From Escherichia phage vB_EcoP_ShWW44, in the sequence record PQ900156.1: DNA of 64,000 nucleotides; one strand, written 5' to 3'. Positions 4,668-61,869 of this stretch are shown here, in pieces (positions within the stretch are counted from its first letter, which is position 1; each line of letters starts with the position of its first letter). Under the pieces are notes generated by a model. The model did not search any database and was not told the DNA's origin. It saw nothing but the letters and a program-made list of their open reading frames with translations. Made by a program: the position numbers and the translations under genes.

Positions 4668-5173
4668 TGGTTGTTAATGGTAATTCCCTGTATCGTTCAT
4701 CTCAACTGCTGGATGTCCCAGACCGTAAGGTATCTAAACACGGTGTAAGCTATGGATTGGGGGAAGCTGGTTATGATATTCGCATCAAACAAGATATTAC
4801 CTTCTATCGCTTATTTGGGTTGATTCCAATGGTGAAAGTCGTTGATGGAAATCAAGTATCACGCCATCTCGGTAAGTTCACATTGGCTTCAGCAATTGAG
4901 AAGTTCAACATGTCCCCATCCTGTGTAGCCATCGTTCACGATAAGTCTACTTGGGCAAGACGTGCATTATCTGTATTCAATACCGTAATAGAACCAGGAT
5001 GGAAAGGGTATTTGACTCTTGAACTGGTCTATCATGGTCGTAAGAAATTGCATATCCCGGCTGGTTCTGGGATAGCTCAAGTATTATTTCATCTGGTTCA
5101 GGAACCTGCTAATTACAATGGCAAGTACATGAACCAGGAAAACCAACCAGTAGCTGCAAGAAGCAGTAAATAA
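4667..5173 (+). CDS. dcd: dCTP deaminase / dUTPase-fold protein
   Basis: KSTWARRALSVFNTVIEPGWKGYLTLEL resembles the dCTP deaminase core; TAATG overlap with upstream gene. Confidence 0.6.
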   Translation: MVVNGNSLYRSSQLLDVPDRKVSKHGVSYGLGEAGYDIRIKQDITFYRLFGLIPMVKVVDGNQVSRHLGKFTLASAIEKFNMSPSCVAIVHDKSTWARRALSVFNTVIEPGWKGYLTLELVYHGRKKLHIPAGSGIAQVLFHLVQEPANYNGKYMNQENQPVAARSSK

Positions 5174-5182
5174 GGAAAACTC

Positions 5183-5392
5183 ATGTCAGTATTTCAAGTA
5201 ACTAATGCAACCTCAAATGTACGTGTAACCATTAATGCTGCAAACGTGATTGCAGTGGAACTGATTCCACTGTCTGATTGTGCACGTATCACATTCGTAA
5301 ATGATGGTGCTATGGAAACCAAAGAAACCTATCGTTCTGTGCGTAATTATCTGAAGAAAGCTCTTGCTCCAGCAAGTAAAGATGCTGAGTAA
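5183..5392 (+). CDS. hypothetical protein (69 aa)
   Basis: ORF only. Confidence 0.4.
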   Translation: MSVFQVTNATSNVRVTINAANVIAVELIPLSDCARITFVNDGAMETKETYRSVRNYLKKALAPASKDAE

Positions 5393-5406
5393 GTAGCTGC
5401 CTAGAT

Positions 5407-5430
5407 AGCCCAACTATGTTGGGCTATTTG
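5407..5430 (+). terminator. probable intrinsic terminator
   Basis: AGCCCAAC/GTTGGGCT hairpin followed by ATTTG. Confidence 0.45.
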
Positions 5431-5465
5431 CGAAGAAACTAACTCAACCCCACATAGGAACCATC

Positions 5466-5717
5466 ATGGAATCTTTAGCAGCAATCCTTGTACTGTTGTT
5501 TGTATTAGCCGTATACCTTATCCCTACTATCATTGCTTTTGCACGAGGTCATGCCTCTAAGTGGGGTATTGGTGTGCTTAATATCGTATTAGGCTGGTCA
5601 CTGGTATTTTGGGTAGTAGCACTTATTTGGGCACTGTCTAATAAAGGAACTACAATCGTTAACGTTGGCAGTGGTAACCAGTACAACGTGTCTCAAACGA
5701 GCAGCAAAGCAGAGTAA
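5466..5717 (+). CDS. superinfection-immunity (Imm)-like two-TM membrane protein
   Basis: 83 aa, two TM helices; LIPTIIAFARGH...LNIVLGWSLVFWVVALIWAL resembles the Imm family pattern. Confidence 0.6.
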   Translation: MESLAAILVLLFVLAVYLIPTIIAFARGHASKWGIGVLNIVLGWSLVFWVVALIWALSNKGTTIVNVGSGNQYNVSQTSSKAE

Positions 5718-5790
5718 CTAATCTAAGCATCATTAATAGGGTGCTTGTGGAAGTTACTTCCAGCTCATTGCTTATCCATCTCCTAACCCA

Positions 5791-5816
5791 AGCCCACCTA
5801 ACCCGTGGGCTTTTTT
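5791..5816 (+). terminator. intrinsic terminator
   Basis: AGCCCAC-ctaaccc-GTGGGCT followed by TTTTTT. Confidence 0.65.
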
Positions 5817-5862
5817 AATTACAGGTACTTCTTATGACAAACAGACGAATGGTAAGTCTATC

Positions 5863-6211
5863 TTGTATGGGCTGGACTTAAGTAAGCTAGAACAAACAGC
5901 AATGCTTACTTTAGGTAAAACTATCCATGACCAAGTGGAGAATGAAAATGTATTAGATCTTTACACAACAATGCAGGTTCTTGTTCAAAAAGATGGACTA
6001 CTAGCAGACCTTTTCCTTCATACATTCCCCCAGAACCGCATCTGAAATCTAAGGTAGACCGTATCATAGATAAGTTCTGGCTTAGCCCGTGTTATGACGA
6101 AATGCATCTTTACTTGGCTCAAATACAAAAGAATCCTTATACCAAAGATGTATTTAAGGGTAAGAGTACTACTCACCACTACCCCTGGTATAGAAGAGGT
6201 AGCAAATACTA
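5863..6211 (+). pseudogene. possibly frameshifted gene: ORF 5863..6045 continues in another frame to 6211
   Basis: Frame of 5863..6045 stops at 6043-6045; an ATG-less open frame runs 5946..6211 and ends overlapping the next start; homopolymer CCCCC at about 6026-6030 lies in the overlap. Confidence 0.3.
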
Positions 6212-6655
6212 ATGCGTATCCCATTCCTGAGAAAAAGGGAACGAAATCCTGTTCTTTACAATAAAGGCATAGAGGATGAGTATGAACTCAATCGTAAAGC
6301 TCGTTCCTACACAACAGAATTATTCATAGGGACTAGAAATCCTGATAGATTATTGGACTTTGTTTTTGAACAAGTCTTTATCATATACAGATTAGCTATG
6401 ACTGCTGGTTCACAAGAAGTGGGTGATAAGGCAAGACATGCTCTCTGTATGCTCCGTAAAGAGTATGAAGCCCTCATGTATGAAGACTTGTACTCCTTTA
6501 AAGAAGAAACCGCTGTAGCGTGTTCTGTGGCTCTTACTGAAGGTGTAGCAGTATTACAAGAACTACCTCGTAGTGAGTTTAAGCTGGTATACGCTCAGGT
6601 TAAGAGAATCACAGAGACGAGAAGTGGTATCACTAACTATCTAAGGTCATTCTAA
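6212..6655 (+). CDS. hypothetical protein (147 aa)
   Basis: ORF; stop overlaps thyX-like start. Confidence 0.55.
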   Translation: MRIPFLRKRERNPVLYNKGIEDEYELNRKARSYTTELFIGTRNPDRLLDFVFEQVFIIYRLAMTAGSQEVGDKARHALCMLRKEYEALMYEDLYSFKEETAVACSVALTEGVAVLQELPRSEFKLVYAQVKRITETRSGITNYLRSF

Positions 6656-7599
6656 TGATTAAGGCATCAGTTATTGCAGATTCCGTTCATCCAGAAACAG
6701 GAACTCGTATCACAACCTTTGAATTGGTTTATCCCCGATTCATTCACAGTGAATTTATGACTCACCGTGTATTCAACCGTAATGCTTCAAGTAGCCGTGC
6801 TATTCCTACTTCTAAATTAATTGAACAGGTTCGTAATGAACCAGTGATGCCAAGTCACTGGGGCAAGAACCAGAAAGGTATGCAAGCAGAAGAAGAACTC
6901 ACTCCTATGGAGATTGAGGATGCTAAGTTTATCTGGGATAACGCTGCATCTGCTGCTGCTGTGTACGCTGAACAGCTACGTCGTGGACAAGTACATAAGC
7001 AAATTGTTAACCGTATTCTGGAACCCTTCACACATATCCGTGTAGTAGTAACTTCAACTAGCTGGGCTAATTTCTATGGACTGCGTGACCACAAAGATGC
7101 ACAACCAGAGATTCGTGAACTGGCTCAAGCAATGCGTAAGGCACATGAAGAAAGCACACCAAGAGCATTACCGTATGGGCATTGGCATTTGCCATATATT
7201 GCTCATATTGACCGTGTTGGGGCTTACAATTTCTGCAAACGTAATCGAGTTACACGCGATGAACCAAGTGATGCAGAAGTATATGGCTTACTTCTCAAAG
7301 TAAGTGCTGCACGCTGTGCTCGTGCTTCTTATAACAACTTTGAAGGACGACCTTCTACTATCGAAGAAGACCTTGGCTTATTCGCTAAGTTAGTAGAAAA
7401 CCAACCTATTCATGCTTCACCAACGGAACATCAGGCTACGCCTATGAACCTTGGTGAAAAATATGTGAATAACATGAACCCAGTTACATGGGAACAAGGT
7501 GTTACATCCATGGATAAAGAAGGGAATCTGTACTCAGGTAACCTGCTCCACTTTATCCAATTCCGTAAATTAATTCCTGGTGAGACTATTACTGAATGA
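6655..7599 (+). CDS. thyX: flavin-dependent thymidylate synthase (ThyX)-like
   Basis: FMTHRVFNRNASSSRAIP fits the ThyX (R)HR-x7-S...R signature. Confidence 0.5.
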   Translation: MIKASVIADSVHPETGTRITTFELVYPRFIHSEFMTHRVFNRNASSSRAIPTSKLIEQVRNEPVMPSHWGKNQKGMQAEEELTPMEIEDAKFIWDNAASAAAVYAEQLRRGQVHKQIVNRILEPFTHIRVVVTSTSWANFYGLRDHKDAQPEIRELAQAMRKAHEESTPRALPYGHWHLPYIAHIDRVGAYNFCKRNRVTRDEPSDAEVYGLLLKVSAARCARASYNNFEGRPSTIEEDLGLFAKLVENQPIHASPTEHQATPMNLGEKYVNNMNPVTWEQGVTSMDKEGNLYSGNLLHFIQFRKLIPGETITE

Positions 7600-7834
7600 A
7601 AAACTAGCTCTATACGCAATGCTAATTAGTACCCTACTAACACTGACCTACGCATACAAAGTTGCCTTTGTCGTAGAAACAGATATGCAGTTCATTCGAG
7701 CTAGTATTCTGTTCTTTGTAAGTGAAATTGGTTTGTGGTGTATCTACTACTTTGCTCGTGACTACGAAGCAATTCGTGAGCAGGAAGAAGTAAAAAGACA
7801 AATGATACGATTTGTAGAACAAAATCGTAAGTAA
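7580..7834 (+). CDS. small membrane protein (84 aa, two TM)
   Basis: Hydrophobic segments LALYAMLISTLLTLTYAY and ILFFVSEIGLWCIYYF. Confidence 0.45.
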   Translation: MRLLLNEKLALYAMLISTLLTLTYAYKVAFVVETDMQFIRASILFFVSEIGLWCIYYFARDYEAIREQEEVKRQMIRFVEQNRK

Positions 7835-7839
7835 ACCTA

Positions 7840-7866
7840 AGACCTCCTCCGGGAGGTCTTTTTTTG
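7840..7866 (+). terminator. intrinsic terminator
   Basis: GACCTCC-tccg-GGAGGTC followed by TTTTTTT. Confidence 0.7.
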
Positions 7867-7894
7867 GTTTCAATTAACTCTTTCAGGAGGGCAT

Positions 7895-8107
7895 ATGCCT
7901 GCTAAATACCGTATCAAAGACACACCAGTAATGTGTGAAGGTGAGAAGGGTGACATTGTATATGCCTGTATTCAGGATGATTTCAATGCTGCTCTTATGT
8001 TAACCCAAATGACAAATACACTGCATGTATCAGTAACACTGGATCCTACTGGTGACTATCCATGCTTTCCTATTCCTGCCCATAACCTGGAGCAAATCCA
8101 TGATTAA
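7895..8107 (+). CDS. hypothetical protein (70 aa)
   Basis: ORF with GGAGGG RBS. Confidence 0.5.
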   Translation: MPAKYRIKDTPVMCEGEKGDIVYACIQDDFNAALMLTQMTNTLHVSVTLDPTGDYPCFPIPAHNLEQIHD

Positions 8108-49062: not shown

Positions 49063-51333
49063 TTATAAGTTCATACCAAGAGCCGATGCTGGGTCTTGGC
49101 TAGGGTCATAAAACTGGGAACTAAGTGAATAAGTCGGGTCTTGCTGTGCAGCTAAGTCACGTTCCTGTAAAGAGTTCCCGTTAGTCAAAGCATTATATCC
49201 GACAGCAGCAGATATGTTGGGGGTAGTTTCACCTTCTTTAGTAGGTGTTGTCAACGCCTTAGTTATTTGAAGGTTCTGGTTTCCTTGAGATTGTGCTTTT
49301 TGTTTCTCCATATCACGAGCATGTTTAGTACCAGATTCCTGTTCCAGATAATCCAGGTCTTTGAGGTCACCGCTAGAAATAGCTTCTTTAGCCTTAGCAT
49401 TATTGAGTGCAATCTTACTTTTCAACTCTTCATTCTCAAGCTGTGCTTTCTGAATTGCTAATTGCTTAAGCTGTTCTTCCATAGGGTCTGGTTGTGGTTT
49501 CCAGGTACGTAATTCATGAGCAAGGTCTGGCATACGTTTAAGTTCTGCAATCTTAGCTACAAGAGATAACGTAATAGTCTGGTCAACTGTATTACCTAAC
49601 GTTTGAACCATGAAGCTCAAATCCTGAGATTTCTGGTTATCAATTTCAGCAGTATTAATATCAACCTCAATATCGAAGTTACCTTTAAGGTCTTCACGGT
49701 TAATTTCTACATACTGCTCATTAGTAATACGTACTACTTCCTTCTCAGATAAGAACACAGCATTCATTGCACAAATCTTAGTACCAATGTCTGCCATACC
49801 CTTAGCTAATCGGCGAAGGATTGCCATCTCACGTTTGGATGCTGCATCAAGTGCACCGCGGATACCAGCAGCTACATCTCCATAAGCTGCACCAGTTACA
49901 CCACCAGAAAATGCTTTAACACCAGTTAGTGCCTCTGCTTCCTGGTTCTGCATCTGAGTCATTACTATTGCCGACTGAGGTAACTCAGGGAACTTGTGTT
50001 CCATAATGGCCTGACTAGGATTCCCCTGCATTGGGTTGTATTCATAGTCTTGCCCATCATCATATCGACGACGGTTTAGAGTATCTAACATCCCTTTAGG
50101 ATAACCACGTTGCCCGTTTGCACTTCGACCCAACAGGTCAATCATCCCACGCATTGTTGCACCAAGAATTGCTTGGTTATCCCCTAGTAGTTCAGCGTCA
50201 GCTTCACCAAAGAGTTCACGTTTACGTGGCATGTAAGGGACAACTACCAGAGGTAACTTACCATCTGGGAATGGGTTCTTCTCCATACGAATAAGAGTAG
50301 AACCAATCCAGGTAGCAACAATTGGTTCCAGTGAACCGTCATCATTAATGTCGTAAAATCCCCAGTACTCATAAGCAACTACTTTCTTACGTAATGCATC
50401 TTTAAACTGGAAATCACCAGGAGTTTTACTTTCATGGTCTGGGTCAGTCATAGGGCTAGAACTTTCCCAGTCAATTTTATCCAGATTGTGATAGCGGTCT
50501 TTGTTCTTCATGAGGTCTGCTTTGCAAGTCTCAAATGAGATAACTGCATAAAGAGCCTTATCCAAATCACCATTACAGCTTGGGTCAATAACTACGTTGT
50601 TGGGGTTAAGCATTTCAACAGTAGGTCTGTTAACCAGTGCTTTTTCTACTTCTACTTCAGTAACACCCGTCTGGATTGCATAGGTAGCTTCCCCAGTTTC
50701 ATTGAAGTAGTTAACAGCTTCCTTAATATCTTCTGGCATCGTTTCGTCATATTCACGAGGATTCTCTGCCTGAAGCTGTAAAGCCTGCTGAAGAATATCT
50801 GCTTGTTCCTGGTTCTCAATTGGATACAACTGGAAGACTGGGGTTTCTGTTTTAATCTTAACAGTCTTACGTTCCCAACCAATACGAGCAATGCCAGTAC
50901 CATCGTCTACGACACTGTGTACGTAATCATCCACCAGTTTTACTTTATTAAGCTGGGTACGGAATTGGTAGTTAAGCACTAGTTCATTCTGACGTGCAGC
51001 TAACTCATCCTCAAAAGTAACAGGGGTTACTTTAAAAAGTTTGTTAGACGAGAGGAATGGTTCTGACAATGGTGCATAACGCCATTCTGCCTGACGGCGA
51101 ACCAGTCTAGGCTGGACTTGGGAACGGCCCTTAACCTTTGGGGGTTTAGCCTTACCCTTAACTTCCATCAAGTCATTCCACTCACGAATCTGAGCCATGA
51201 TTGCATCGTGAGCAGGTTTAGCTGATTCCAAATCACCTTTCAGTAATTGGATACTTGGTTCCTTCTTCCAGTCCGTTAACTTCTCTGATTGAGCCGGGTC
51301 TGGTAAAGGCTTAAAAGTGTCTTGGTGTTCCAT
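49063..51333 (-). CDS. portal protein (N4 gp59-like by size and position)
   Basis: 756 aa; position between lysis cassette and capsid module. Confidence 0.55.
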
Positions 51334-51335
51334 AG

Positions 51336-51863
51336 TTATTCCTGTTCAAAAAGTTTACGGTCAGCCTGAATCTGTTTACCCAACTCAATTAGTTGGCTGT
51401 CACGGAGTCTAACAGTTGCCCGGAGTTCTTCAACCAAACGTCTGCCTTCTTCAAGACTGTTGTCGAGTCTGGCTGCATGGCTTGCAAGACTTCTGCACTC
51501 AAGGGTTCCGGCTTCGGCTTGACGTTTATATACCGATGCTCGCCTTTCAGACTGTTGCATCCGGCTGTCGTAATCACTGCTAACGCGAGCAAGCTCGCTT
51601 GCGTAATTACTCTCAGCCGTCTGCAACCGGGAAGTGAGTAACCCGACTTCATAACTATGGTTTCTTTGGAGAGCATTGTATTTGTCCTGTAATTTTTGTA
51701 TTGCCTTTTGGTCTTCAACCTTTTGGTCATCCCATTTCTTTTGAACAGTAGACTGTCCATTGGAATTACCCCAAAAGTAAATGGTGGCCCCTAGGACCAC
51801 CACCAGAAGATAAGGCCAACCTTTAGAGATTAGCATCTTCATTACATGCCTCCAGTGGCACAT
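51336..51863 (-). CDS. i-spanin (Rz-like): N-terminal TM plus periplasmic coiled-coil
   Basis: [18 protein letters not shown] then charged helical region; start may be an internal ATG (about 51842 or 51836). Confidence 0.55.
51389..51652 (-). CDS. o-spanin (Rz1-like) lipoprotein embedded in the i-spanin gene in another frame
   Basis: Signal with RRLR n-region, [12 protein letters not shown] lipobox-like, Pro-rich mature part KPKPEP; start set to internal Met of track ORF 51389..51760. Confidence 0.5.
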   Translation of the reverse strand: MKSGYSLPGCRRLRVITQASLLALAVITTAGCNSLKGEHRYINVKPKPEPLSAEVLQAMQPDSTTVLKKADVWLKNSGQLLDSVTAN

Positions 51864-52458
51864 TGCCTATTCGGTTAGCTACCCAACCATATGTAAAGTC
51901 TGGCATGTTTAATGAGGTGTAGTGGTTCAGTTGTTTGGCATCAAGTAACTTAATCATTACCTTACATGCTGCAACTTTGCCTCGTTTTTTCTGTAATGCT
52001 TTATATGCATTAACAGTACTTGCACCGACTTTACCATCAACCTGTATTTTAGGGTAGTCTTTGCCATCACGGGACATTTCATTAAGAGATTGCTGTAACC
52101 ACTTAGCCGGACGAGTTACACCAGTGTTAACACCAGCATCTACCAGCTTGTGTGTTACAGCAGGAGATATATCAGCGAAGGCTACGAAGTTAGGCTTAAG
52201 TACATAGTCATCAATGTATATCTCAGCAGCCATCTCTTTAGATAAACCTTTCATAGAACCATCCCAACCATACTCAGTAGCCAGAACTTCTTTGTGAGAT
52301 TTAGCTACAGATTGAGTAATGCCATGATTAGTTTCCCCACCTGGGTCACGAGGATTGTTTACATATCCCCCTTCCATATAGAACACTGCCCCCAGGATAG
52401 CAGCGACAACTCCTCCCACTGTACCACCTTTCGCAGCAAGTTTCTGTTTAGCTTTCAT
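51823..52458 (-). CDS. endolysin, GH108-type muramidase with possible SAR signal-anchor
   Basis: EGGYVNNPRDPGGETNHGIT motif; N-terminal Gly/Ala-rich weak TM GGTVGGVVAAILGAVFY. Confidence 0.65.
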   Translation of the reverse strand: MKAKQKLAAKGGTVGGVVAAILGAVFYMEGGYVNNPRDPGGETNHGITQSVAKSHKEVLATEYGWDGSMKGLSKEMAAEIYIDDYVLKPNFVAFADISPAVTHKLVDAGVNTGVTRPAKWLQQSLNEMSRDGKDYPKIQVDGKVGASTVNAYKALQKKRGKVAACKVMIKLLDAKQLNHYTSLNMPDFTYGWVANRIGNVPLEACNEDANL

Positions 52459-52708
52459 GTGAATCTTCCTTTGGTCGGAATCGTATCAATCTGCCTATGA
52501 TGTTTAAGGCAAACAGTGCGATTGCAATATTGGAACCATGGGGAATATCTTCCAGGATGTGACGAGGTAGTCCTGTCAGCATTGGTTGAATAATATCTAT
52601 GGCAGAAAACATAATTAACCCAAATGTACTAATCTGAATGGATGCCCACTTCCAGCATCTTTTCCAGTTAGGTACTAACTCAATCTTTCTTTTTAACCTG
52701 CGAACCAT
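52448..52708 (-). CDS. holin/pinholin candidate (two TM helices)
   Basis: TM segments ASIQISTFGLIMFSAI and NIAIALFALNIIG; immediately upstream of endolysin; start trimmed to internal Met. Confidence 0.45.
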   Translation of the reverse strand: MVRRLKRKIELVPNWKRCWKWASIQISTFGLIMFSAIDIIQPMLTGLPRHILEDIPHGSNIAIALFALNIIGRLIRFRPKEDSHES

Positions 52709-53022
52709 GCGAATATCTCCCGTCTTGCAGCAGCCAATACACCAATAATTGCACCTGCTCCAGCCCACACCCACTTACCAAAAATTCCAGCACCAACAAC
52801 TTTATGCTTAATGGTGATGAACTCTTCAATAGTAGGTTCATTTTTAGCTAAGCTATCCTCCACATTTTTCAGCCTATTGCCTATGTCATTGATTGAATCC
52901 CGTAGTTCCACCAGAGTTTCCTCCAGTTTCTCACGGTCCTGCCTGTCCCTTGTCTGGTTCTCAAACAGAGTCTTCAATCGTTCCTCCAGTCTGACTAGAA
53001 GCAGTTCACCCGATTCATTCAT
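52693..53022 (-). CDS. lysis-associated membrane protein (N-terminal coiled-coil, C-terminal Gly-zipper TM)
   Basis: C-terminal VVGAGIFGKWVWAGAGAIIGVLAAA; first gene of the lysis cassette. Confidence 0.4.
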   Translation of the reverse strand: MNESGELLLVRLEERLKTLFENQTRDRQDREKLEETLVELRDSINDIGNRLKNVEDSLAKNEPTIEEFITIKHKVVGAGIFGKWVWAGAGAIIGVLAAARREIFAWFAG

Positions 53023-53201
53023 AATATTACCGTAGTTGTGTAGTTAGATTCCCCAATAGGGCCATATCATAAGATGACTCTTAGATAATACTTAGTATGA
53101 TGGGGTACATCCAGACATAGTGTCTGCCTTAGACATTATTGTAAGAAGTGCAGGTACAGTGAGAGAATGGGGAATGCAAACAGTAAACTCTATATAGGAA
53201 A

Positions 53202-53226
53202 AGCCCCCTTAATTGGGGGCTTTTAG
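53202..53226 (-). terminator. bidirectional intrinsic terminator after tailspike gene
   Basis: AGCCCCC-ttaatt-GGGGGCT with U-tracts on both strands. Confidence 0.6.
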
Positions 53227-53238
53227 TAATGTCACATG

Positions 53239-55146
53239 TTATACAAAGTAAACCAATGTACCTATGATACGTGAATTATTCCCCAGTGCTGCAACAGAAC
53301 CAGAAATACCCACTGCTGAGGCTGTAGATGCAGAGATCATGATATTGGAGTTCAGTGCTTCTGCTCGGATATACAAGCCATAAACAGGTAAGGCAAGTTC
53401 AGCATAGTAGCCTACACTACCTGTACCTGTGGTATCACCACACGCAAAAGGCAGACCTAAAATTGCTGACTGATTCCCTGTACCAATAGTATTGATATGA
53501 ATATCAAACTCTACTGTTACCTTACGACCTTCTTTACGGTACTTACCCTTCTGAATGTTATAAGTAGCATTACCACCTACAGAAGGGGTCCATGTACCTT
53601 CTATAACATCAGAGGATGTCCATGCATTTGGTGATAATGGTGGGTTATTGACAACAGTGAATTTAGCACCAGCACCTGAGTTGTAGGGGATGAATACAGG
53701 ATTAATACGAGCAAAGGTGTTATTAACCTGTTCATCAAGGTTGTTCATATCAATCAGAACCTGTCCATTAGCAAATGTACTAACAGCAATATCCTCTACT
53801 ACCCAATCACGTAGCTTAACGTTACCATCCATCATTCCGATGATGCGACCATTATTCCCTATCTTCTCACTATGCATGTTGATGTAACAGTTACGGATTC
53901 GTACACTCTGTGGGAAAAGGTAGTTTGCAGGATTAGTCTTGTCACTAAGTACTGAAACCATCCAAGGTCGTACAGCTGTACTCACCTCTGTGTAGTATCC
54001 ATCAATAATAGCACCGTGAGCATTTGGCCCAAGAAGAATACCTCCAGTACAGTGGTGTGCGTTACCTCCAATTACACGGCACATTGTAGAGTTGATATAT
54101 GCAAAGTAACCTAAGTCTTGGTTATCGTATGCACCCATTGAGCAATCACGTATGGTAAATCGTGAGTTACCGCCATCATAGGCACTACCATCAGTCTTCT
54201 TGCCAAGGAGAGCTATGAAACTACCAGTTGCTACTGTACTGAAGTAGGTATGTTTCTCACAACACTCAATGATCCCATCCCAGTTCTCATACTGAGAATA
54301 GATGTCATAGGTTGCAGAGTTACCATAGTCCATAAAGATGCAGTATCTGATTCTAGGTGTGAATACGAAGGACTTAATGAAAATACCGAAACCTGCTTGC
54401 ACACCACCAGTGAATCGCAGACCCTCTATAGTGTATTCAGACTGATAGAAGTTATCAGCAGTAGGTGCATCTTCTGGAGTTGGGTCACCTAAGTACATTG
54501 CTGCACCAGTACCTGAGTAGTCCAGAGTAGCTGACTGAAAACCATATACTGCTACAGGGCGTGTAAAGTTTATACCAGTAGTATACTTATAATGACCAGC
54601 AGGAAAGATAACAGAAATGGGTGCAGAGTATTTGGCTCGGGAGTTTACCCAAGCAACCATAGCCTGAATAGCAGCAGTGTCATCGGTAATCCCATCACCT
54701 ACTGCACCAAAGTCCTTCAGACTTACCCAATCACCTAATGCAGCCTGTACAGTGCGAGCAACTTCACCAACACGTCCGGTAATGTGACCAACCTTACTAG
54801 AGCCAGTGTTAGAAGCCAGTTCGTCATATACTGCTGTAATGGCTTCATTGACTCGTACAGCAATGTCATTTGGTGCAGGAAGTAGACTAACGGTAATACC
54901 CCCTGGGTTATAGGTTAATTGGTCACCATTTACATTAGCAATGGTTGCCCCGGAGGGGAGAGTAGGTAAAGTCCATATCTTCTTAGCATTACGATCGAAG
55001 AGTATAGTCTTATCATCTAGCAATGTATTAGTATTCGTACTGAGAATAACTTTACCTTCTGCTACGTTACATGCACGAGCAATGGCTTGTATATTGGTAA
55101 GAATACCCGTAGAGCCTTTACCACCTTGAGAGAACATCTCGTTCAT
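53239..55146 (-). CDS. tailspike/tail fibre with pectate-lyase-like beta-helix domain (depolymerase candidate)
   Basis: DFGAVGDGITDDTAAIQAMVAW motif typical of Pectate_lyase_3 domains; 635 aa. Confidence 0.65.
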   Translation of the reverse strand: MNEMFSQGGKGSTGILTNIQAIARACNVAEGKVILSTNTNTLLDDKTILFDRNAKKIWTLPTLPSGATIANVNGDQLTYNPGGITVSLLPAPNDIAVRVNEAITAVYDELASNTGSSKVGHITGRVGEVARTVQAALGDWVSLKDFGAVGDGITDDTAAIQAMVAWVNSRAKYSAPISVIFPAGHYKYTTGINFTRPVAVYGFQSATLDYSGTGAAMYLGDPTPEDAPTADNFYQSEYTIEGLRFTGGVQAGFGIFIKSFVFTPRIRYCIFMDYGNSATYDIYSQYENWDGIIECCEKHTYFSTVATGSFIALLGKKTDGSAYDGGNSRFTIRDCSMGAYDNQDLGYFAYINSTMCRVIGGNAHHCTGGILLGPNAHGAIIDGYYTEVSTAVRPWMVSVLSDKTNPANYLFPQSVRIRNCYINMHSEKIGNNGRIIGMMDGNVKLRDWVVEDIAVSTFANGQVLIDMNNLDEQVNNTFARINPVFIPYNSGAGAKFTVVNNPPLSPNAWTSSDVIEGTWTPSVGGNATYNIQKGKYRKEGRKVTVEFDIHINTIGTGNQSAILGLPFACGDTTGTGSVGYYAELALPVYGLYIRAEALNSNIMISASTASAVGISGSVAALGNNSRIIGTLVYFV

Positions 55147-55437
55147 AGCAACCTCTTTGTTTTTCTAGAAGACCTCGCTTCAGCGGGGTCTTATAACTAG
55201 GTAAGTACACGGTAGCGTAGGCCAGTATGCATTATCTTATCTAGACTTTTCCTCTTACTAGATACAATAACCATCCATTCCCTCCTACAATGTTACACCA
55301 ACCTTTCATATTAATACTTGGAATACACTAAGAGCAAACCTAGATAGTCAGGGAACAAGTCATAGACTCCAGAGCGGCACTCATAGGTGTGCTGTGAGCT
55401 ATCATAGGTCTGCCCTTGTGTACACTAAGATATTAAC

Positions 55438-55590
55438 CTGCTTACGCAGAAGATACAGAAGGTTTCTTCATTGCACGACGTTGTACATCCTTAGCAATGG
55501 CGTAAGCCTGCTTAGGGTCACACTCTTCCTTGATGAGTTCTTCTGTGTTCCGGCGTACAGCACTTTGCTTAACTGACTTGATTAATGGCA
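55438..55590 (-). CDS. small basic protein (about 50 aa) translationally coupled to tailspike 2
   Basis: TGATG stop/start overlap with upstream tailspike gene; below ORF-track cutoff; coordinates +/-2 nt. Confidence 0.3.
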
Positions 55591-58428
55591 TCACTCTTCA
55601 GTCCCAAGTCTGCTCGTTACCTCTGGTATGACTGTCACTTGCATTGTTTGACCTGCGTGCCCATTGATTACCTTGATACGAATAAGATTAGCTGTGGAGG
55701 AATCATCACTAACAGTAATATCGCCAGTATTTACCCCTACTGCTCCGTATTTATCACCAAAGCTAACAGTAACAGAGGAACCGAATACTGCATGTCTCCC
55801 ATCGACACGATAGGAAGAAAAGTTTCCTGTAGAAACGTTACGGATAAGAACCCACAGACTAAGTCCACGGAAAGACAAAGTACCATTTGTTGATACAGGT
55901 AACTCAATAGTAGCTGACCCACCTTGTACAATTTCTCCTGCATACTTAGATTTGTATAGGTACTTCCCTGGCAAATCTAGGTATTCTTCATTTACACGAA
56001 GAAGATTGTTAATGTGCATTGCGTCAGTTCTGTTTGTAACAGGGGATTCATCAACTCCAACATCAAAGTTGTCATAACTATAAACTTTGCCGCCTGAACC
56101 ACTAAAGAGTAAGTTAGTGCCATGTAAGTTATTATGACGCACCGTATGGTTAGCACCGGAATGGCGAATAATGGTTATACCTCTAACACCAGACACACCA
56201 TAACAATCATTACCCTCAATAGAAGCGGAATCAACAGAATCATCTAAGAATATACAGTTAGGAACATCCTTGCCAGTGATATGGTTGCCACGTATAGTCA
56301 AGTTACGGTGACGACCTGTTGGGCTTTGGCCAAACTTACTGACGTAAATGCGAGGTACATTGTTTCCTACTACTGATACGTTCTCAGAGTTGTTAGATTG
56401 TGCAGTAATGAAAATCCTATCCGTGCAGGTGTTACCTATTACGTTAATGTTGCTAGTGTCATCTATCCATAGCAGTTTATGGAAGATATTACCAGTAACA
56501 ACACCGTAGCTTATCTGGTTATTCTCAATCTCTAAGGATCCATATTCATTGTCATGGTCATAGTTACCAATAACCACCAAAGAGCCGTTACCATTAATGA
56601 AGTTATAAGAAGTAGCATTCTTGCCACCATACGTCGAGTTACCTATGCACTTGGCATTGGTCACACCTACGTGTTGAAAGTGGCCTCTATCTTTACCATC
56701 TTTAGGCTGAACTGAAGTACAGCCCATAATAGAGGTGTCACGAACTACTCTGTTGGTAGGATCGCTTTCTGACGCATCGTAGGAGCGACCTCGGAAGTCT
56801 GTGTTATAGAAGAAACCCTCGAAACGCGCACCATGTACCTTGATGTCCTCATAGTCTCTACCGTCTTCATAGGCCAATATTTGAAATGCACGACATGCGT
56901 TGTCATATCTCGCAGCAGTAAGTGTCCCTGTCAAGAAACTACGAAACTTACTTGTTTTGATACGAATACACTCAAACTGCAAGTCTGCATCTCCAACTAG
57001 TGTAATAGGTTTGTCCACGGTAACAGTACCAAACCTATAGGGTCCGCCATAGAAACCTAAAGTACCTCCAGACGGAGTCGCATCAATTGCAGCTTGAATG
57101 GCGTAAGTACTATCTGTTGTAAGATTGGGCACTGCACCAAAATCTTTGACACTAACACTATCTTCTGCCCGTTCCTGCAATGTACGAGAAATTGTCCCAG
57201 GCAAAGGAATCTTAATACCAATCTTACTTGCACCGGAATCACTAGCTAAATCCGCTTTATATGCAGTCAGCTCATCTCTTACTGGAGATGGTACAGGAAG
57301 TAGATCAACAACAATTTCGCCAGGGGAATATGTTAACTTACCTGCATTAACAGACTGAATATATACATTCGCTGGTAATGAAGGTAACCCATATGACTTC
57401 TGCTCACTAACAGAGTAGACAATCTTTTTACCATTCAATAATTGCGTAGTGTCAGTGCTAAGAATTACTTCACTATCCTTAACGTTAGTAGCACGAGCAA
57501 CTTCCTGAAGAGTATGGTCTGATGTTTCCAGTACCTGTGTTTCTCCCCCAATCTGTACAATCAGACGGTCATTGGTTGCCAGCGGCTCAGTAAGAAGGAT
57601 ACGCTGGTTATCTGGGTCAGCAGTATATGACTCAGTGGTTAATCCTTTATACAAACGAAGACCATTCTTATACACAGCAGGAATAGACTGGAAGGTATAA
57701 GGAATAGTAATAACCTGCTCACCACCTACAGCAGCACCATTGTTGTATAACCAGTTAATCTGAACCCAATCACTAACATTAGGATTATCCGGTACAGCAG
57801 GAACTCCAGTCAGAAGGAATACTACTTCATCACCCTCTTCCAAAGGTTGAGCCAGAGTTACAGACAGACTATCTGCGTTAAACTCAAAGCCACGCCCTAC
57901 ATACTGCATGTCTCCATTAATAATAATGAAAGGCACACCTACCGTACCATCTGGTACGTTGATTGTAGTTTCGCCACCAGCAGCAGAACCATTGCAGTAC
58001 ACCCATGGAATATACGCACCTTCCCCGGAGGAAGTACCACCACTATTGGAGCCAGAAGTAGCAACAGTAATCCACGAACCAATTGCTTCTGGGTCATCTG
58101 GTATGATGCCGGTACGGTCACCTTCTACATATAAGTAGTCTGTTACCTGACGGTCACCTGCACGAGAGAAGCCATAGATACGTGCATACTTAGCTTTAGT
58201 AGTTAGTGCTTTGAGTTCTGCTTCAGACTGTACACCAAGTACCATTCCATACTGGTTAAGGAAATCATACAGGAGTTTAAGATTACCCAGGTTGCAGTAC
58301 ACAGTACGAACCACATGGTAAGCATTACCAAGTAGTGCATCTACCATTGGGTCATTGGAACTATTCTGGCAGTAAGGATTAGTCCAATCCTGTTTTGCAT
58401 CAAAGGGGTTGTGTGCGTTCATCGCCAT
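55591..58428 (-). CDS. tailspike with right-handed parallel beta-helix (second depolymerase candidate)
   Basis: VKDFGAVPNLTTDSTYAIQAAIDA plus repeated NxxIxGN beta-helix rungs; 945 aa. Confidence 0.65.
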   Translation of the reverse strand: MAMNAHNPFDAKQDWTNPYCQNSSNDPMVDALLGNAYHVVRTVYCNLGNLKLLYDFLNQYGMVLGVQSEAELKALTTKAKYARIYGFSRAGDRQVTDYLYVEGDRTGIIPDDPEAIGSWITVATSGSNSGGTSSGEGAYIPWVYCNGSAAGGETTINVPDGTVGVPFIIINGDMQYVGRGFEFNADSLSVTLAQPLEEGDEVVFLLTGVPAVPDNPNVSDWVQINWLYNNGAAVGGEQVITIPYTFQSIPAVYKNGLRLYKGLTTESYTADPDNQRILLTEPLATNDRLIVQIGGETQVLETSDHTLQEVARATNVKDSEVILSTDTTQLLNGKKIVYSVSEQKSYGLPSLPANVYIQSVNAGKLTYSPGEIVVDLLPVPSPVRDELTAYKADLASDSGASKIGIKIPLPGTISRTLQERAEDSVSVKDFGAVPNLTTDSTYAIQAAIDATPSGGTLGFYGGPYRFGTVTVDKPITLVGDADLQFECIRIKTSKFRSFLTGTLTAARYDNACRAFQILAYEDGRDYEDIKVHGARFEGFFYNTDFRGRSYDASESDPTNRVVRDTSIMGCTSVQPKDGKDRGHFQHVGVTNAKCIGNSTYGGKNATSYNFINGNGSLVVIGNYDHDNEYGSLEIENNQISYGVVTGNIFHKLLWIDDTSNINVIGNTCTDRIFITAQSNNSENVSVVGNNVPRIYVSKFGQSPTGRHRNLTIRGNHITGKDVPNCIFLDDSVDSASIEGNDCYGVSGVRGITIIRHSGANHTVRHNNLHGTNLLFSGSGGKVYSYDNFDVGVDESPVTNRTDAMHINNLLRVNEEYLDLPGKYLYKSKYAGEIVQGGSATIELPVSTNGTLSFRGLSLWVLIRNVSTGNFSSYRVDGRHAVFGSSVTVSFGDKYGAVGVNTGDITVSDDSSTANLIRIKVINGHAGQTMQVTVIPEVTSRLGTEE

Positions 58429-59129
58429 CCTCGTTGTTCAAATTTAGTTTCGGTAATTGAAATACTTCCATTAGCCAGGTCGTAATCAACAACCTCACCA
58501 CAGATGCTTTCATACGTTTGCAGATACTCTGCTGCCTTAGCGTTAGCTTCAGGAGTATTCAAACCAGTGTGGTAACGATAACCCACCCAGTTATGAAGTG
58601 CCGTCATTAGCGTATCAGCTAAATCAACCTCCTGTTCTTCATCACCCGTAAGTACTGGGTGCTTAGCTTGATAAGTTACGTTAAGTGCCTCGAAGTGTCG
58701 AGGTCGCATACACTGAATAGTATCAGGCCGAGGAGTGAAGATTGCATGGGGGTCTGAATCGTCGTTAAGTCTACGGCGATTCCCTAAGTTATCAAACACA
58801 TTTAAGATTTTAATAACATCATCCTGGAAAGGTTTCATGAACCCATCCATGATGTATGGATATTGAATCTCTAGAGTAGGCTTAGTAAATTTGGAGTAAG
58901 CATATCTGGATTGAAGGGGATAATCAGTACGACCTTCCTTCATCTCTACTATGCAGCTATTAGTCCTTAAAGGGAAACGACTATGTAGTCGTACCAGCCC
59001 TTCATTAATAGCAGCCAATATCTCAGGCTTGCTATCTGGTTCAATATCTAATCTGTCATCCGTGACTGCACCAGTACCTTTCAAGGTACTTAGTGCTAAG
59101 CCACGATATACTTCTGATAATTTTTGCAT
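58419..59129 (-). CDS. virion/tail-associated protein, hypothetical (236 aa)
   Basis: ORF between large terminase and tailspike genes. Confidence 0.5.
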   Translation of the reverse strand: MQKLSEVYRGLALSTLKGTGAVTDDRLDIEPDSKPEILAAINEGLVRLHSRFPLRTNSCIVEMKEGRTDYPLQSRYAYSKFTKPTLEIQYPYIMDGFMKPFQDDVIKILNVFDNLGNRRRLNDDSDPHAIFTPRPDTIQCMRPRHFEALNVTYQAKHPVLTGDEEQEVDLADTLMTALHNWVGYRYHTGLNTPEANAKAAEYLQTYESICGEVVDYDLANGSISITETKFEQRGWR

Positions 59130-59135
59130 GGTTCC

Positions 59136-60746
59136 TCACACAATATATGAACGTAGAGGGTTAACACTATCTTCTTCTTCATCATCCCACATCGGGTCAC
59201 CTTTATTATCCACCATAGTCATACCTGCTTGTGGTTTCCATGGATTGAGATAACCCAGCATAGAGATAGTATCAATACAGTCATCCTTACCTTTGATTCC
59301 ATTAATGGTAGCTAGTTTAATCTGGCCCATGAACAGACCCATAATAGTTGAATCTCTCAACTCTTCCGGGAAATACATCTTACCAGCTTTGAACCATGGA
59401 ACTACCAGGTTAAAGCGTGACAGCTTAGAAGTTACAGGACGTATGCCTGGCTTACCACCCTCAGAGGATGCAAAGTTAAAGAAGACATTACGGTTAATCA
59501 TTTCTTTCTGAAGGAGTGAAATGAATCCATTCTGTTGTCCTGTGATTTCGACCCCAACGTTTTGTGGTTGGTATTCTTGAACCAGACGGAACAGGTCATC
59601 GAAGTTTTTATCCATAAGCTGACGATTAGCCACACCATCAACCCAGAACCAATCTCCATTAGAACTATAAGCCCAAACTGATATGACACTGTAGTCACTG
59701 GTCTGTTTCTCCGAAGTAGCAAAGTCGGTTGTAATGTAATAGTTGTAGCAGGACTTCATCCTTAACAGTTGTTGTCTGCTATACCATCTAATTTCACTAT
59801 CCTGAACCAGTCTCTCATCCTCAGAACTAATACGTAACATAAGTTCCTGATAGAAGCCTGCCAGCTTACCTGTCTTAACTGCCATGTCATATTGGGCTTT
59901 AATGTAGTCGTAAGAGAAACGGTCATCCCATGCACCCTGAAATTCTTCTCTGCTACATGGGAACTTCTCACATACAGGCCATACGTTGACATCCCATGCA
60001 CCAGACTCAACTGCTTCAATGATAATGTCTTCCTTATTAAAGGGAGTACCGTTGAAGATTACTTTACGACGAGTAGGGTCAAGAGCATGGTTCACGCCTT
60101 TATAGACGGTGTCTTTAATAGCTTCCATGCTTGTCTTGGAGTTAGCATCGCCATCACTAATCAAGTCATCCAGTACACAGAGTGTTGGACGTTTACCATA
60201 TATCTTCGTACCACGAAGACCTGTCTTAGCACCAAACAGCTTAACACCAAGTCGATGCCCTTCTACATTACGAAACTCTAATAGGTTATCCGTAAAGGTA
60301 GCTTCAGGTATCCATTGCTGAAGGAACTCACTATTCTTATAACGGAACTCAATATTCTTACGTGCAGACTTAGCACCGTTATCCATTGAGTCAGATACGT
60401 AAATCATTCCTTCTACTTTACCTAGGCTAGGTAAGTGACCAAACACTGCCAGGAATAAAGTAAAGTATTCCATGAACACAGCAGTCTTACCTGCACCACG
60501 GAAGCACAGGTTAACTACATACTGGTTCGGGCTAATCATCTTATCCAGCATCTTCAAGTGAACTGGGGGTGTTTTGTTGGATTCACCTTCTTTGCCATTA
60601 ACCAACTTAATAAAGTTGGCAAAGGTAAGAGCAAACTGACTGGGAACATAGTTGGAAGAGTTTAGGTGGGAGTAATCCACCTGGTCTAGCCATTCATCCA
60701 GTTCCTGTTTAATTAACTCAGACATCTGTAATGTCCTCATCTGCAC
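59136..60746 (-). CDS. terminase large subunit
   Basis: Walker A-like RGAGKTAVF, Walker B-like region, C-terminal nuclease-like acidic residues; 536 aa. Confidence 0.7.
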   Translation of the reverse strand: MQMRTLQMSELIKQELDEWLDQVDYSHLNSSNYVPSQFALTFANFIKLVNGKEGESNKTPPVHLKMLDKMISPNQYVVNLCFRGAGKTAVFMEYFTLFLAVFGHLPSLGKVEGMIYVSDSMDNGAKSARKNIEFRYKNSEFLQQWIPEATFTDNLLEFRNVEGHRLGVKLFGAKTGLRGTKIYGKRPTLCVLDDLISDGDANSKTSMEAIKDTVYKGVNHALDPTRRKVIFNGTPFNKEDIIIEAVESGAWDVNVWPVCEKFPCSREEFQGAWDDRFSYDYIKAQYDMAVKTGKLAGFYQELMLRISSEDERLVQDSEIRWYSRQQLLRMKSCYNYYITTDFATSEKQTSDYSVISVWAYSSNGDWFWVDGVANRQLMDKNFDDLFRLVQEYQPQNVGVEITGQQNGFISLLQKEMINRNVFFNFASSEGGKPGIRPVTSKLSRFNLVVPWFKAGKMYFPEELRDSTIMGLFMGQIKLATINGIKGKDDCIDTISMLGYLNPWKPQAGMTMVDNKGDPMWDDEEEDSVNPLRSYIV

Positions 60747-61407
60747 GTACTAGTTTAGAACCAGCAACCTCTTTGGTAGGTACACCACTATTGATTGCAT
60801 TAATTTGCTGTTCAGCCAATGCAGCAAGTGTTGCCTTGAGGTCAGTTAATCCAGAGTTCTCTCTCAAGTCCAGATTGATATTCGTTACCTGGTCTTTCGG
60901 TTTAGCTAAGTGAGTAAGGATAGAGTTAGCTGCATCACATCTTACTTTCTCACTTGCTGCTGAAGTCATTAGTTCAACCTGAACGTTGATGGCCTTCTGA
61001 TAATTGTCCTGGTTCACAATCCACACTGGAACCAAACTTTGTTCCATGATGAGGTTAACTAACTTACCCCTGTGATAAGCAGATACATAAGCACTAATAT
61101 CTTTCTCACTGGTTCCTCGTGCTACTAGTTCTGCTTGTCGGTTAGGGAATGTTTTGAAGTAGGCTTCCTTATTTGAGTAGCCCATATGTTTATAAGTTAC
61201 ATACTGAACTGCATTCATGTAGTCCTGTGTCTTAAACTTACCTTCCTTCATTACACCAGAGTAGGAGATAAAGTTTTCACGGAAGGACTCAGCAACCAGT
61301 TGGTCTTGGGTAATGTTGTTAATTGTATCTACTAACTCTTGGGTCACACTGTTTTTGAAGTTAGCAGGTAGTGCATTAATAATCTGCTGCTTAGTTAGTT
61401 CACTCAT
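60718..61407 (-). CDS. first gene of late block; possible terminase small subunit (position only)
   Basis: 229-aa ORF overlapping the large terminase start by 29 nt. Confidence 0.35.
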   Translation of the reverse strand: MSELTKQQIINALPANFKNSVTQELVDTINNITQDQLVAESFRENFISYSGVMKEGKFKTQDYMNAVQYVTYKHMGYSNKEAYFKTFPNRQAELVARGTSEKDISAYVSAYHRGKLVNLIMEQSLVPVWIVNQDNYQKAINVQVELMTSAASEKVRCDAANSILTHLAKPKDQVTNINLDLRENSGLTDLKATLAALAEQQINAINSGVPTKEVAGSKLVRADEDITDV

Positions 61408-61578
61408 ACTTATCTCGCTACAAAGTTATGTCTATTAAAGAAGATTCTTTTCTTGGGGTGAGTTACCCCTTGAAGAAACGATACCATACAGTTACACTTT
61501 AGTCATGATATAGAAAAAGTTCATGATACTAAATAGTATGTAATGTTCCGATGACCCTATTCCCAAAAGGAGTAACCT

Positions 61579-61869
61579 TTGAGAATCTATATGAGAGTCC
61601 ACGACTCTAAAGATGTATACAAAGAGCTAGACCACACTAAAGCTGGTATTCTTTCAGATGACATTATCATCACACATGATGAAGACACCTACCATGAATT
61701 AGCTGGGATGATGCTTTTAGAGAATCATCCAGGCATTAAAATCTTAGAACCAAGAGAAACATACTCTTTAGAAAAACGCCTTTCAGCTCTTGTGTTCTTC
61801 ACAAAATTACCTCATAGTGTCTCCGTCAGGCGAAGCAAAGACAGTGTTCGGATGACGGTGACGATGTGA
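61579..61869 (+). CDS. early protein, hypothetical (96 aa)
   Basis: AAGGAG RBS; track start is TTG at 61579, first ATG at 61591. Confidence 0.5.
   Translation: MRIYMRVHDSKDVYKELDHTKAGILSDDIIITHDEDTYHELAGMMLLENHPGIKILEPRETYSLEKRLSALVFFTKLPHSVSVRRSKDSVRMTVTM

Follow-up and report, generated by a model that had tools for sequence, protein, structure and literature searches.

Organization of the tailspike locus

The genome of Escherichia phage vB_EcoP_ShWW44 (PQ900156.1) carries two tailspike genes in tandem, encoding a gp66-like protein of 945 amino acids (aa) and a gp63.1-like protein of 635 aa, with a small open reading frame (ORF) of 49 codons between them. The locus was analyzed in a stretch of 64,000 nucleotides (nt), referred to as the window, and an overview of its features is given in Table 1. 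The window is a Gamaleyavirus, i.e. a G7C-like, N4-related podovirus. Between positions 53000 and 58600 it shares 97.4% nt identity with Escherichia phage St11Ph5 (Schitoviridae, Gamaleyavirus), in which the two large ORFs are annotated as gp63.1 and gp66, the latter as 'tail protein'. The window backbone is about equally related to several Gamaleyaviruses (~93-94% identity), and for the ShWW44 genome 94.72% identity to St11Ph5 at 100% coverage has been reported (PMC12243467).

Every gene across 49-61 kb is encoded on the minus strand. In the direction of transcription, a 229-aa ORF (gp69 in St11Ph5, annotated as hypothetical) is followed by the gene of the terminase large subunit (59136-60746), a 236-aa virion/adaptor protein gene (gp67), the 945-aa ORF, the small ORF of 49 or 50 aa, a 295-nt spacer and the 635-aa ORF, after which gp63, holin, endolysin, spanins and portal are encoded. 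Both spike genes are thus located between homologues of N4 gp63 and gp67, and a gp65 sheath gene is absent. The order gp63, gp63.1, small ORF, gp66, gp67, terminase large subunit is the one annotated in St11Ph5. The same gene order is found in G7C, but without the small ORF.

Table 1 Features of the tailspike locus. Positions are those of the window; AF2, AlphaFold2; RBS, ribosome binding site
Feature	Position	Strand	Basis or remark
gp67 virion structural/adaptor protein	58419-59129	-	phrog_2125, E 1.3e-91
gp66-like primary tailspike	55591-58428	-	945 aa; probable true start at 58422, giving 943 aa
gp66 aa 1-135, virion-attachment domain	58024-58428	-	74% identity to G7C gp66; PDB 9d80_D
gp66 aa ~140-295, two T4 gp10-like branching domains XD2/XD3	57544-58011	-	boundaries approximate
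gp66 aa ~300-380, internal 'head' domain	57289-57531	-	paralogous to the gp63.1 N-terminal domain
gp66 aa ~424-785, right-handed parallel beta-helix body	56074-57159	-	
gp66 aa ~803-938, C-terminal beta-sandwich	55615-56022	-	AF2 secondary structure and pLDDT
49-aa basic ORF, SP6 gp51 / K1-5 gp48 family (phrog_2423)	55442-55591 (55594 from GTG)	-	
Stem-loop AGACCCCGCUGAAGCGAGGUCU, followed by the gp63.1 RBS	55169-55192	-	left limit of the foreign patch
gp63.1-like secondary tailspike	53239-55146	-	635 aa; protein 100% identical to St11Ph5 gp63.1
gp63.1 aa 1-95, conserved N-terminal peptide and head domain	54862-55146	-	putative gp66-docking module
gp63.1 aa ~140-500, right-handed parallel beta-helix body	53647-54729	-	AF2 and Foldseek
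gp63.1 aa ~514-634, C-terminal beta-sandwich	53245-53607	-	AF2 secondary structure
Terminator-like GC-rich hairpin and T-run just after the gp63.1 stop	53204-53221	-	read from the sequence
SP6-like (Vectrevirus) patch, ~1.9 kb	55219-57154	-	gp66 body, small ORF and ~220 nt of downstream non-coding sequence
Zero-mismatch block to St11Ph5	53105-57379		4,275 nt; base-by-base comparison

Sequence motif and fold of the two tailspikes

A regular expression for DFGA...AIQ, applied to all six frames of the window, has two matches only, both located in the large ORFs: DFGAVGDGITDDTAAIQ at 54664-54714 in the gp63.1-like protein and DFGAVPNLTTDSTYAIQ at 57094-57144 in the gp66-like protein. The sequence-only reading had ascribed the stricter DFGAxGDG...AIQ form to both proteins. 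The DFGA and AIQ elements are present in both, while the GDG is found in the 635-aa protein only. Both proteins match PF12708 (Pect-lyase_RHGA_epim), with 45 bits (E 1.5e-11) and 28.9 bits (E 1.2e-6) at a gathering score of 27 bits; the matches span only the N-terminal cap and the first rungs.

Structure prediction supports the earlier assignment of both ORFs as beta-helix tailspikes. The AF2 model of gp63.1, based on an alignment of 34 sequences, has a mean predicted local distance difference test score (pLDDT) of 86.4 and shows a small N-terminal beta domain, a helical neck at aa 95-111, a long run of short strands at ~aa 140-500 and a C-terminal beta-sandwich at aa 514-634. For gp66, aa 384-945 were modelled with 27 sequences (pLDDT 82.2), which yielded a beta-helix and a C-terminal beta-sandwich. 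The beta-helix is complete and confidently predicted in both models, and neither protein lacks it. In Foldseek searches against the PDB, gp63.1 matches the tailspikes of CBA120 (TSP2), Det7, HK620 and Sf6 with a probability of 1.0, and the gp66 body matches AM24, Sf6, phage P1, Kp9 gp42 and HK620 with the same probability; on this basis, both bodies are pectate-lyase-like right-handed beta-helices.

Profile searches of both bodies against PDB sequences gave no match beyond the head domains and the first rungs of the beta-helix; a close relative with a solved structure is thus lacking for both bodies. Candidate catalytic residues are the conserved acidic residues D273, E287, D324, D334 and E387 in gp63.1 and the invariant acidic residues E633, E635, D656 and D657 in gp66. 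Lyase and hydrolase chemistry cannot be told apart from the predicted beta-helix fold of either body.

The gp66-like primary tailspike

The gp66-like protein is mosaic in that a Gamaleyavirus N-terminal part is joined, near aa 425-447, to a beta-helix body of foreign origin. Its start is probably located at 58422 rather than at the listed ATG at 58428, since the ATG at 58422 overlaps the gp67 stop (ATGA), is preceded by GAGG 6 nt upstream and corresponds to the codon annotated as the start of G7C gp66, and since the homologue P0121 has a length of 943 aa. Over aa 3-377 the protein is 74% identical to G7C gp66. In the PDB, it matches 9d80_D (E 6e-158) and Gp49 of 9d83 (E 1.4e-140), and aa 3-79 weakly match the N4 '60 kDa protein' (9lc0_A, E 3.9e-4). 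The 410-aa Gp49 of 9d83 resembles a gp66 that consists of the adaptor part only. A literature search on the gp66-like structures under the PDB codes 9D80, 9D81, 9D83 and 9D84 returned unrelated papers only.

At the sequence level, a virion-binding N-terminal domain is followed by the T4 gp10-like domains XD2 and XD3: aa 140-381 match residues 19-246 of CBA120 TSP2 (6w4q_A; XD2/XD3 and head) with E 4.5e-31. With the roles of the XD domains taken from PMC8825819, XD2/XD3 are, by analogy with G7C, a putative docking site for gp63.1. Relatives of the body are tailspikes of 552 aa (87-88% identity) on contigs of 43-46 kb, including Vectrevirus T205P5, and P22-like prophage tailspikes are 45-50% identical. 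A related Gamaleyavirus on a 70-kb ENA metagenome contig (L029, 3826-6905) encodes a gp66 of only 375 aa, comprising the N-terminal anchor/branching part without a receptor-binding body, followed by a gp63.1 allele of 76% identity.

The gp63.1-like secondary tailspike

The gp63.1-like protein begins with MNEMFSQGGKGSTGILTN, in which 18 of 18 residues are identical to G7C gp63.1; over aa 1-87 the identity is 40% (87 aa). In the PDB, the N-terminus matches G7C gp63.1 (4qnl_A, E 1.2e-10) and CBA120 TSP1 (4oj5_A, E 3.1e-12), as well as Gp48 of 9d84. The stretch that follows the N-terminal peptide (aa 19-202) is homologous to gp66 aa 307-479 (39% identity, E 3e-31); the head, neck and first rungs are therefore common to both proteins. 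gp66 carries ~300 extra residues before this shared region, and the bodies after it are unrelated. The earlier statement that the N- and C-terminal regions of the two spikes differ thus holds for the bodies and the C-termini, but not for the N-terminal region of gp63.1, which has its counterpart in an internal stretch of gp66.

Relatives of the gp63.1 body are found in several genomic backgrounds. Other contigs of ~70 kb encode relatives of 76-98% identity, and tailspikes of 658 aa on ~45-kb contigs are 75% identical. The closest non-N4 relatives are on one of the latter, where the adjacent genes encode DUF1833, SNF2, methylase and PolA proteins; this suggests another type of phage, possibly a siphovirus. 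P22-like E. coli prophage tailspikes with a PF09008 head-binding domain are ~55% identical. In addition, the chromosomes of the laboratory strains E. coli B, BL21, REL606 and C (e.g. NC_012967.1, 797019-797675) contain a gene for a 'hypothetical protein' that is ~66% identical at the nt level to a part of the gp63.1 beta-helix. The 445-aa cluster P0028 (56% aa identity) is its probable equivalent, and the gene is presumably what is left of a prophage tailspike.

An identical cassette in two Gamaleyavirus backbones

The zero-mismatch block shared with St11Ph5 spans the complete gp63.1 gene, the sequence between the genes, the small ORF and the part of gp66 that starts at aa 350. Its left limit is located 134 nt downstream of the gp63.1 stop and its right limit at gp66 codon 350. 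The flanking sequences are clearly diverged, with identities to St11Ph5 of 95.1% for 50000-53100, 87.3% for 57350-58428 (the first 350 gp66 codons) and 95.7% for 58429-61600. Since a block without a single mismatch is embedded in a diverged backbone, the window represents a phage different from St11Ph5 that carries the same, recently exchanged cassette.

The first 350 codons of gp66 (57380-58428; 87.3% identity to St11Ph5) fall below the ~95% of the surrounding backbone and are ~88-90% identical to those of EC1-UPM, ZQ2, Bp4 and others. This 5' part is more diverged than the backbone and therefore seems to stem from yet another lineage.

Origin of the gp66 body and its downstream flank

Different SP6-like phages match different portions of the region that encodes the gp66 body and the small ORF. 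Identity to Vectrevirus T205P5 amounts to 90.4% at the nt level over 55408-57154, the sequence that follows the gp51-like gene of ACG-C91 matches 55318-55445 with 98.4% identity, and segments within 55219-55443 share 87.4% identity with Citrobacter phage CrRp3. Taken together, these matches indicate an SP6-like origin of ~55219-57154. The protein encoded by the small ORF is only ~84% identical to the ACG-C91 copy, as compared to 98.4% for the non-coding flank downstream; which Vectrevirus matches best therefore depends on the part of the patch that is compared. In SP6-like phages, the flank at 55318-55445 may be an element conserved towards the right end of the genome.

The stem-loop at the left limit of the patch and the adjoining gp63.1 RBS are conserved with G7C, where the counterpart of the stem-loop is located between the two spike genes. 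A preprint on G7C-like phages has already named this stem-loop as the limit of g66 exchanges on that side (bioRxiv 10.1101/542787). The small ORF is universal in SP6-like phages and, among N4-like phages, unique to this cassette, a distribution that speaks for an SP6-like phage as the donor. The first tailspike of T205P5 and gp63.1 are unrelated, so the two bodies do not co-occur in this Vectrevirus. A literature search for the host or serotype of Vectrevirus T205P5/T205P4 found no paper that mentions these phages.

Predicted assembly and function of the spikes

The sequence-only reading had offered dual polysaccharide specificity or a branched tailspike assembly as explanations for the two spikes. 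In G7C, gp66 and gp63.1 form a branched complex of which St11Ph5 has analogues (PMC5764931, PMC6393563, PMC8825819); there, gp63.1 is reported to be attached to the virion through gp66 in a manner that requires the XD3 domain (PMC8825819, PMC6393563). St11Ph5 has been described as organized like G7C with different receptor-recognition units (PMC5764931). Because of the strong homology to the G7C proteins, which includes the N-terminal part of gp66 and the first 18 residues of gp63.1, a branched adhesin composed of gp66 and gp63.1 appears to be the best reading of the locus, and of the suggestions made earlier it is the branched assembly that fits best.

Dual polysaccharide specificity is a plausible hypothesis. 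For St11Ph5, which carries the identical cassette, resistant mutants of the O5ab host keep an unchanged lipopolysaccharide (LPS) profile, and the phage infects rough mutants of E. coli 4s inefficiently (PMC6393563). The authors concluded that infection can bypass O-antigen recognition, although gp63.1 is a predicted lyase (PMC6393563). An O-antigen dependence of the spikes is therefore doubtful, and a capsule or another glycan is as likely a target as the O-antigen. When the tailspikes were compared with prophages in 5,426 complete E. coli genomes, only partial matches of 66-70% nt identity were found; with no close copy, the receptor cannot be inferred from prophage tailspikes.

The observations on St11Ph5 lend some weight to the alternative that at least one of the beta-helix bodies only binds or is vestigial, with infection proceeding via direct recognition of a non-O-antigen receptor and without true dual depolymerase specificity. 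In addition to the behaviour of St11Ph5, the gp66 motif without GDG and a fold that does not reveal the chemistry are compatible with it. However, each body has acidic residues that are invariant or almost so among homologues of 35-94% identity, lytic phages as well as prophages encode many intact relatives of both, both are modelled as confident and complete beta-helices, and an unchanged LPS profile leaves a capsule or another glycan as a possible substrate. Hence, this alternative is considered unlikely, though it deserves to be kept in mind.

The small ORF between the tailspike genes

The sequence-only reading had described a basic ORF of 50 aa that is translationally coupled to the second tailspike and could be an assembly chaperone. 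The ORF is real. It encodes 49 aa from its ATG (55591-55589), which overlaps the gp66 TGA by one base (TGATG), and 50 aa from an alternative GTG; its predicted product has an isoelectric point of 9.8. The sole PHROG match is phrog_2423 (E 1e-21), annotated as 'unknown function'. The protein is 73-88% identical to its copies in Vectrevirus and Zindervirus, and ACG-C91 annotates its own copy as 'similar to SP6 gp51'. The function of the homologues K1-5 '48' and SP6 gp51 is listed as unknown (PMC4837284). A Pfam search with the small protein and its distant relatives at E-values up to 10 retrieved no family and nothing informative. The names given by the sources for the homologues are all 'hypothetical' or 'uncharacterized', and similarity to chaperones was not found.

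The family is native to SP6-like phages. A tblastn search retrieved 115 phage records, of which only the two St11Ph5 records are N4-like; those listed belong to phages of the SP6/K1-5/K1E type with genomes of ~43-47 kb (Vectrevirus, Zindervirus and relatives from Klebsiella, Vibrio and Proteus). In SP6-like phages, the small ORF directly follows the last tailspike gene, close to the right end of the genome. Across 15 SP6-like loci, it follows reading frames of 511-818 aa that encode unrelated tailspike types, including endosialidases, with junctions of +1, +23, -1, -6, -7 or -11 nt. It evolves under purifying selection in these phages (median pairwise ratio of nonsynonymous to synonymous substitution rates, dN/dS, 0.14) and is therefore a real gene there. 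For pairs that include the window copy the ratio is higher (0.25), and SGRDPKQAYAIAK, invariant in the 15 SP6-like copies, reads EECDPKQAYAIAK in the window.

More distant members of the family were also observed. The metagenome contig L023 from IMG/VR (3776-8052) encodes MPLIKSVKPAAFKKNVATEVKAGKPVKQAVAIAYSEKREAQKKGKKK (phrog_2423, E 8.5e-15) just upstream of the terminase large subunit and portal genes, with no spike gene adjoining. Its DPKQAYAIA motif recurs in L021 and L022, where it is part of longer reading frames.

Evidence on the role of the small ORF in its new context comes from a second Gamaleyavirus on a Logan contig (L028, SRR30129659), in which the gp66 body is 94% identical to that of the window and gp63.1 appears to be the homologue P0001 (98% identical). 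At 6832-7213 of this contig, ~115 nt are gone after the gp66 stop, by which codons 1-38 of the small ORF are lost and its 3' end is left; the spacer before gene 63.1 also differs. The deletion fits a passenger that decays after transfer rather than a required chaperone. Thus, there is evidence that the small ORF came along with the transfer and is dispensable in this cassette.

Two other roles were considered. First, the gp51-family mini-protein might act as a mobile accessory factor, one that moves between Autographiviridae and Schitoviridae along with the terminal tailspike cassette and, for example, tunes the expression, assembly or release of the preceding spike. This is an improbable reading. 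If true, however, the cassette could, together with the O-antigen-independent behaviour of St11Ph5, define an infection strategy unlike that of G7C.

Second, the 49-aa protein would, as a dedicated and translationally coupled chaperone, be needed for folding or trimerization of gp66. The 1-nt TGATG overlap, which recurs in Vectrevirus T205P5, the consistently tight packing behind the last tailspike gene in SP6-like phages, the purifying selection acting there and the joint movement with the tailspike body would all be in line with such a role. Endosialidases carry their own intramolecular chaperone, and yet a protein of 73-88% identity follows them as well as the other tailspikes of 511-818 aa. 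The distant member in L023 is encoded beside terminase and portal rather than beside a tailspike, neither a Pfam match nor similarity to known chaperones supports the role, and both tailspike genes are intact in L028, from which the small ORF is deleted. Moreover, the replacement of SGR by EEC occurs in this lineage only, and dN/dS is higher for pairs with the window copy. The chaperone suggested earlier is accordingly not borne out, and we regard it as highly improbable.

Neighbouring genes and regulatory signals

Apart from its PHROG match, gp67 shows similarity to PF24175 (SU10_adaptor), which at 26.4 bits is just under the cut-off of 27 bits. Promoter-like sites between 52400 and 59200 are below shuffle expectation, and terminator-like sites in the same region are barely above it. 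The terminator scan lists the hairpin downstream of gp63.1 on the plus strand. Direct and inverted repeats flanking gp63.1 are limited to short, chance-level matches.

Proposed model and contribution

As a whole, the locus is very probably a St11Ph5-type branched two-spike cassette with an SP6-like-derived gp66 body and a small ORF carried as a passenger. In this model, the N-terminal domain of gp66 would anchor the protein to the virion neck. gp66 would display the two T4 gp10-like branching domains and a head and end in its own beta-helix receptor-binding body, and gp63.1 would dock on it through the conserved N-terminal peptide and head domain, adding a second, unrelated beta-helix body. 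Each appendage would be a branched two-spike adhesin able to engage two different surface glycans. The gp66 body, the 49-aa ORF and ~220 nt of the sequence behind it would have been acquired together from an SP6/K1-5-like phage (Vectrevirus), in a single patch that reaches to the conserved stem-loop in front of gene 63.1, and the whole cassette would have been exchanged recently between two Gamaleyavirus backbones differing by ~5%.

Several points weigh against parts of this model. Given the unchanged LPS profile of resistant mutants and the low-efficiency infection of rough strains by St11Ph5, O-antigen may not be what the spikes act on. The direction of transfer from an SP6-like donor is read from the distribution of the small ORF only. 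L028 is a contig assembled from a sequencing run and not a phage proven to be viable, and in the window the small ORF is intact and tightly coupled to gp66, so that its expression and some function in this phage are possible.

The least probable alternative is that the two tailspikes attach independently as separate spike sets and do not form a branched complex, since the head domain of gp63.1, although homologous to the heads of stand-alone Kuttervirus tailspikes, is not accompanied by a counterpart of the gp66 virion-binding domain (the homology to gp66 starts at gp66 aa 307), the N-terminal 18 residues are those of G7C gp63.1, which is reported to be held via gp66 (PMC6393563, PMC8825819), gp66 retains the XD2/XD3 branching domains, and a 375-aa gp66 beside a gp63.1 allele, as in L029, is sensible only with gp66 as an adaptor.

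The locus is an ordinary system that has already been described in the literature on St11Ph5 and G7C. The underlying biology was established: in G7C-like phages, gp66 and gp63.1 make up a branched adhesin, and recombination exchanges its C-terminal bodies. The locus opens no new question. What is added is the presence of the same 4.3-kb recognition cassette, with exact limits, in two backbones ~5% apart, the apparent origin of the gp66 body in a lytic SP6/K1-5-like podovirus and not in a prophage, along with a gp51-type gene and a non-coding flank, and evidence for the dispensability of this small gene in its new context. Apparent novelty is accordingly modest and confined to the limits of the identical cassette, the SP6-like, cross-family donor of the gp66 body and the hitchhiking dispensable ORF. 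As the swap points are defined, the data are useful for annotation and host-range engineering.

Comparison with known systems

The closest known system is the adsorption module of St11Ph5, described as genes 76 and 77 in PMC5764931 (2018), with the gp63.1 analogue given as gp78 in PMC6393563 (2019). The gene order is the same, the cassette is free of mismatches and the gp63.1 proteins are 100% identical. The two phages differ by ~5% in the backbone and by ~13% (nt) in the first 350 codons of gp66.

In G7C, the phage of the branched gp66/gp63.1 tailspike complex (Prokhorov et al. 2017, as cited in PMC6393563 and PMC8825819), the spike genes are likewise located between gp63 and gp67. Shared are the N-terminal 375 aa of gp66 (74%), the identical N-terminal peptide of gp63.1 together with a head of 40% identity, and the stem-loop and RBS between the genes. 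The spacer between the spike genes is only 47 nt long in G7C and lacks the small ORF. Both receptor-binding bodies are unrelated to those of G7C: here both are beta-helices, while the gp63.1 of G7C is an O-antigen deacetylase of the SGNH type. The G7C system is represented in the PDB by 4qnl and probably by 9d80.

Among the SP6/K1-5/K1E-like phages (Vectrevirus, Zindervirus), T205P5 encodes tandem tailspikes of 652 and 552 aa, of which the latter is 87% identical to gp66 aa 400-945. Behind them are a 49-aa ORF that overlaps by 1 nt in the same way and a similar downstream sequence. SP6-like spikes are reported to attach via a separate adaptor protein encoded at the right genome end. In contrast, the body is fused here to the N-terminal scaffold of a Gamaleyavirus gp66.

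Finally, the tailspikes TSP1-4 of CBA120 and Det7 (Kuttervirus) share the T4 gp10-like XD2/XD3 and head domains at the sequence level (6w4q, 4oj5) and the principle that one spike carries others. Their complex, unlike the one proposed here, is part of a myovirus baseplate and comprises four spikes, with a different anchor domain and different bodies.

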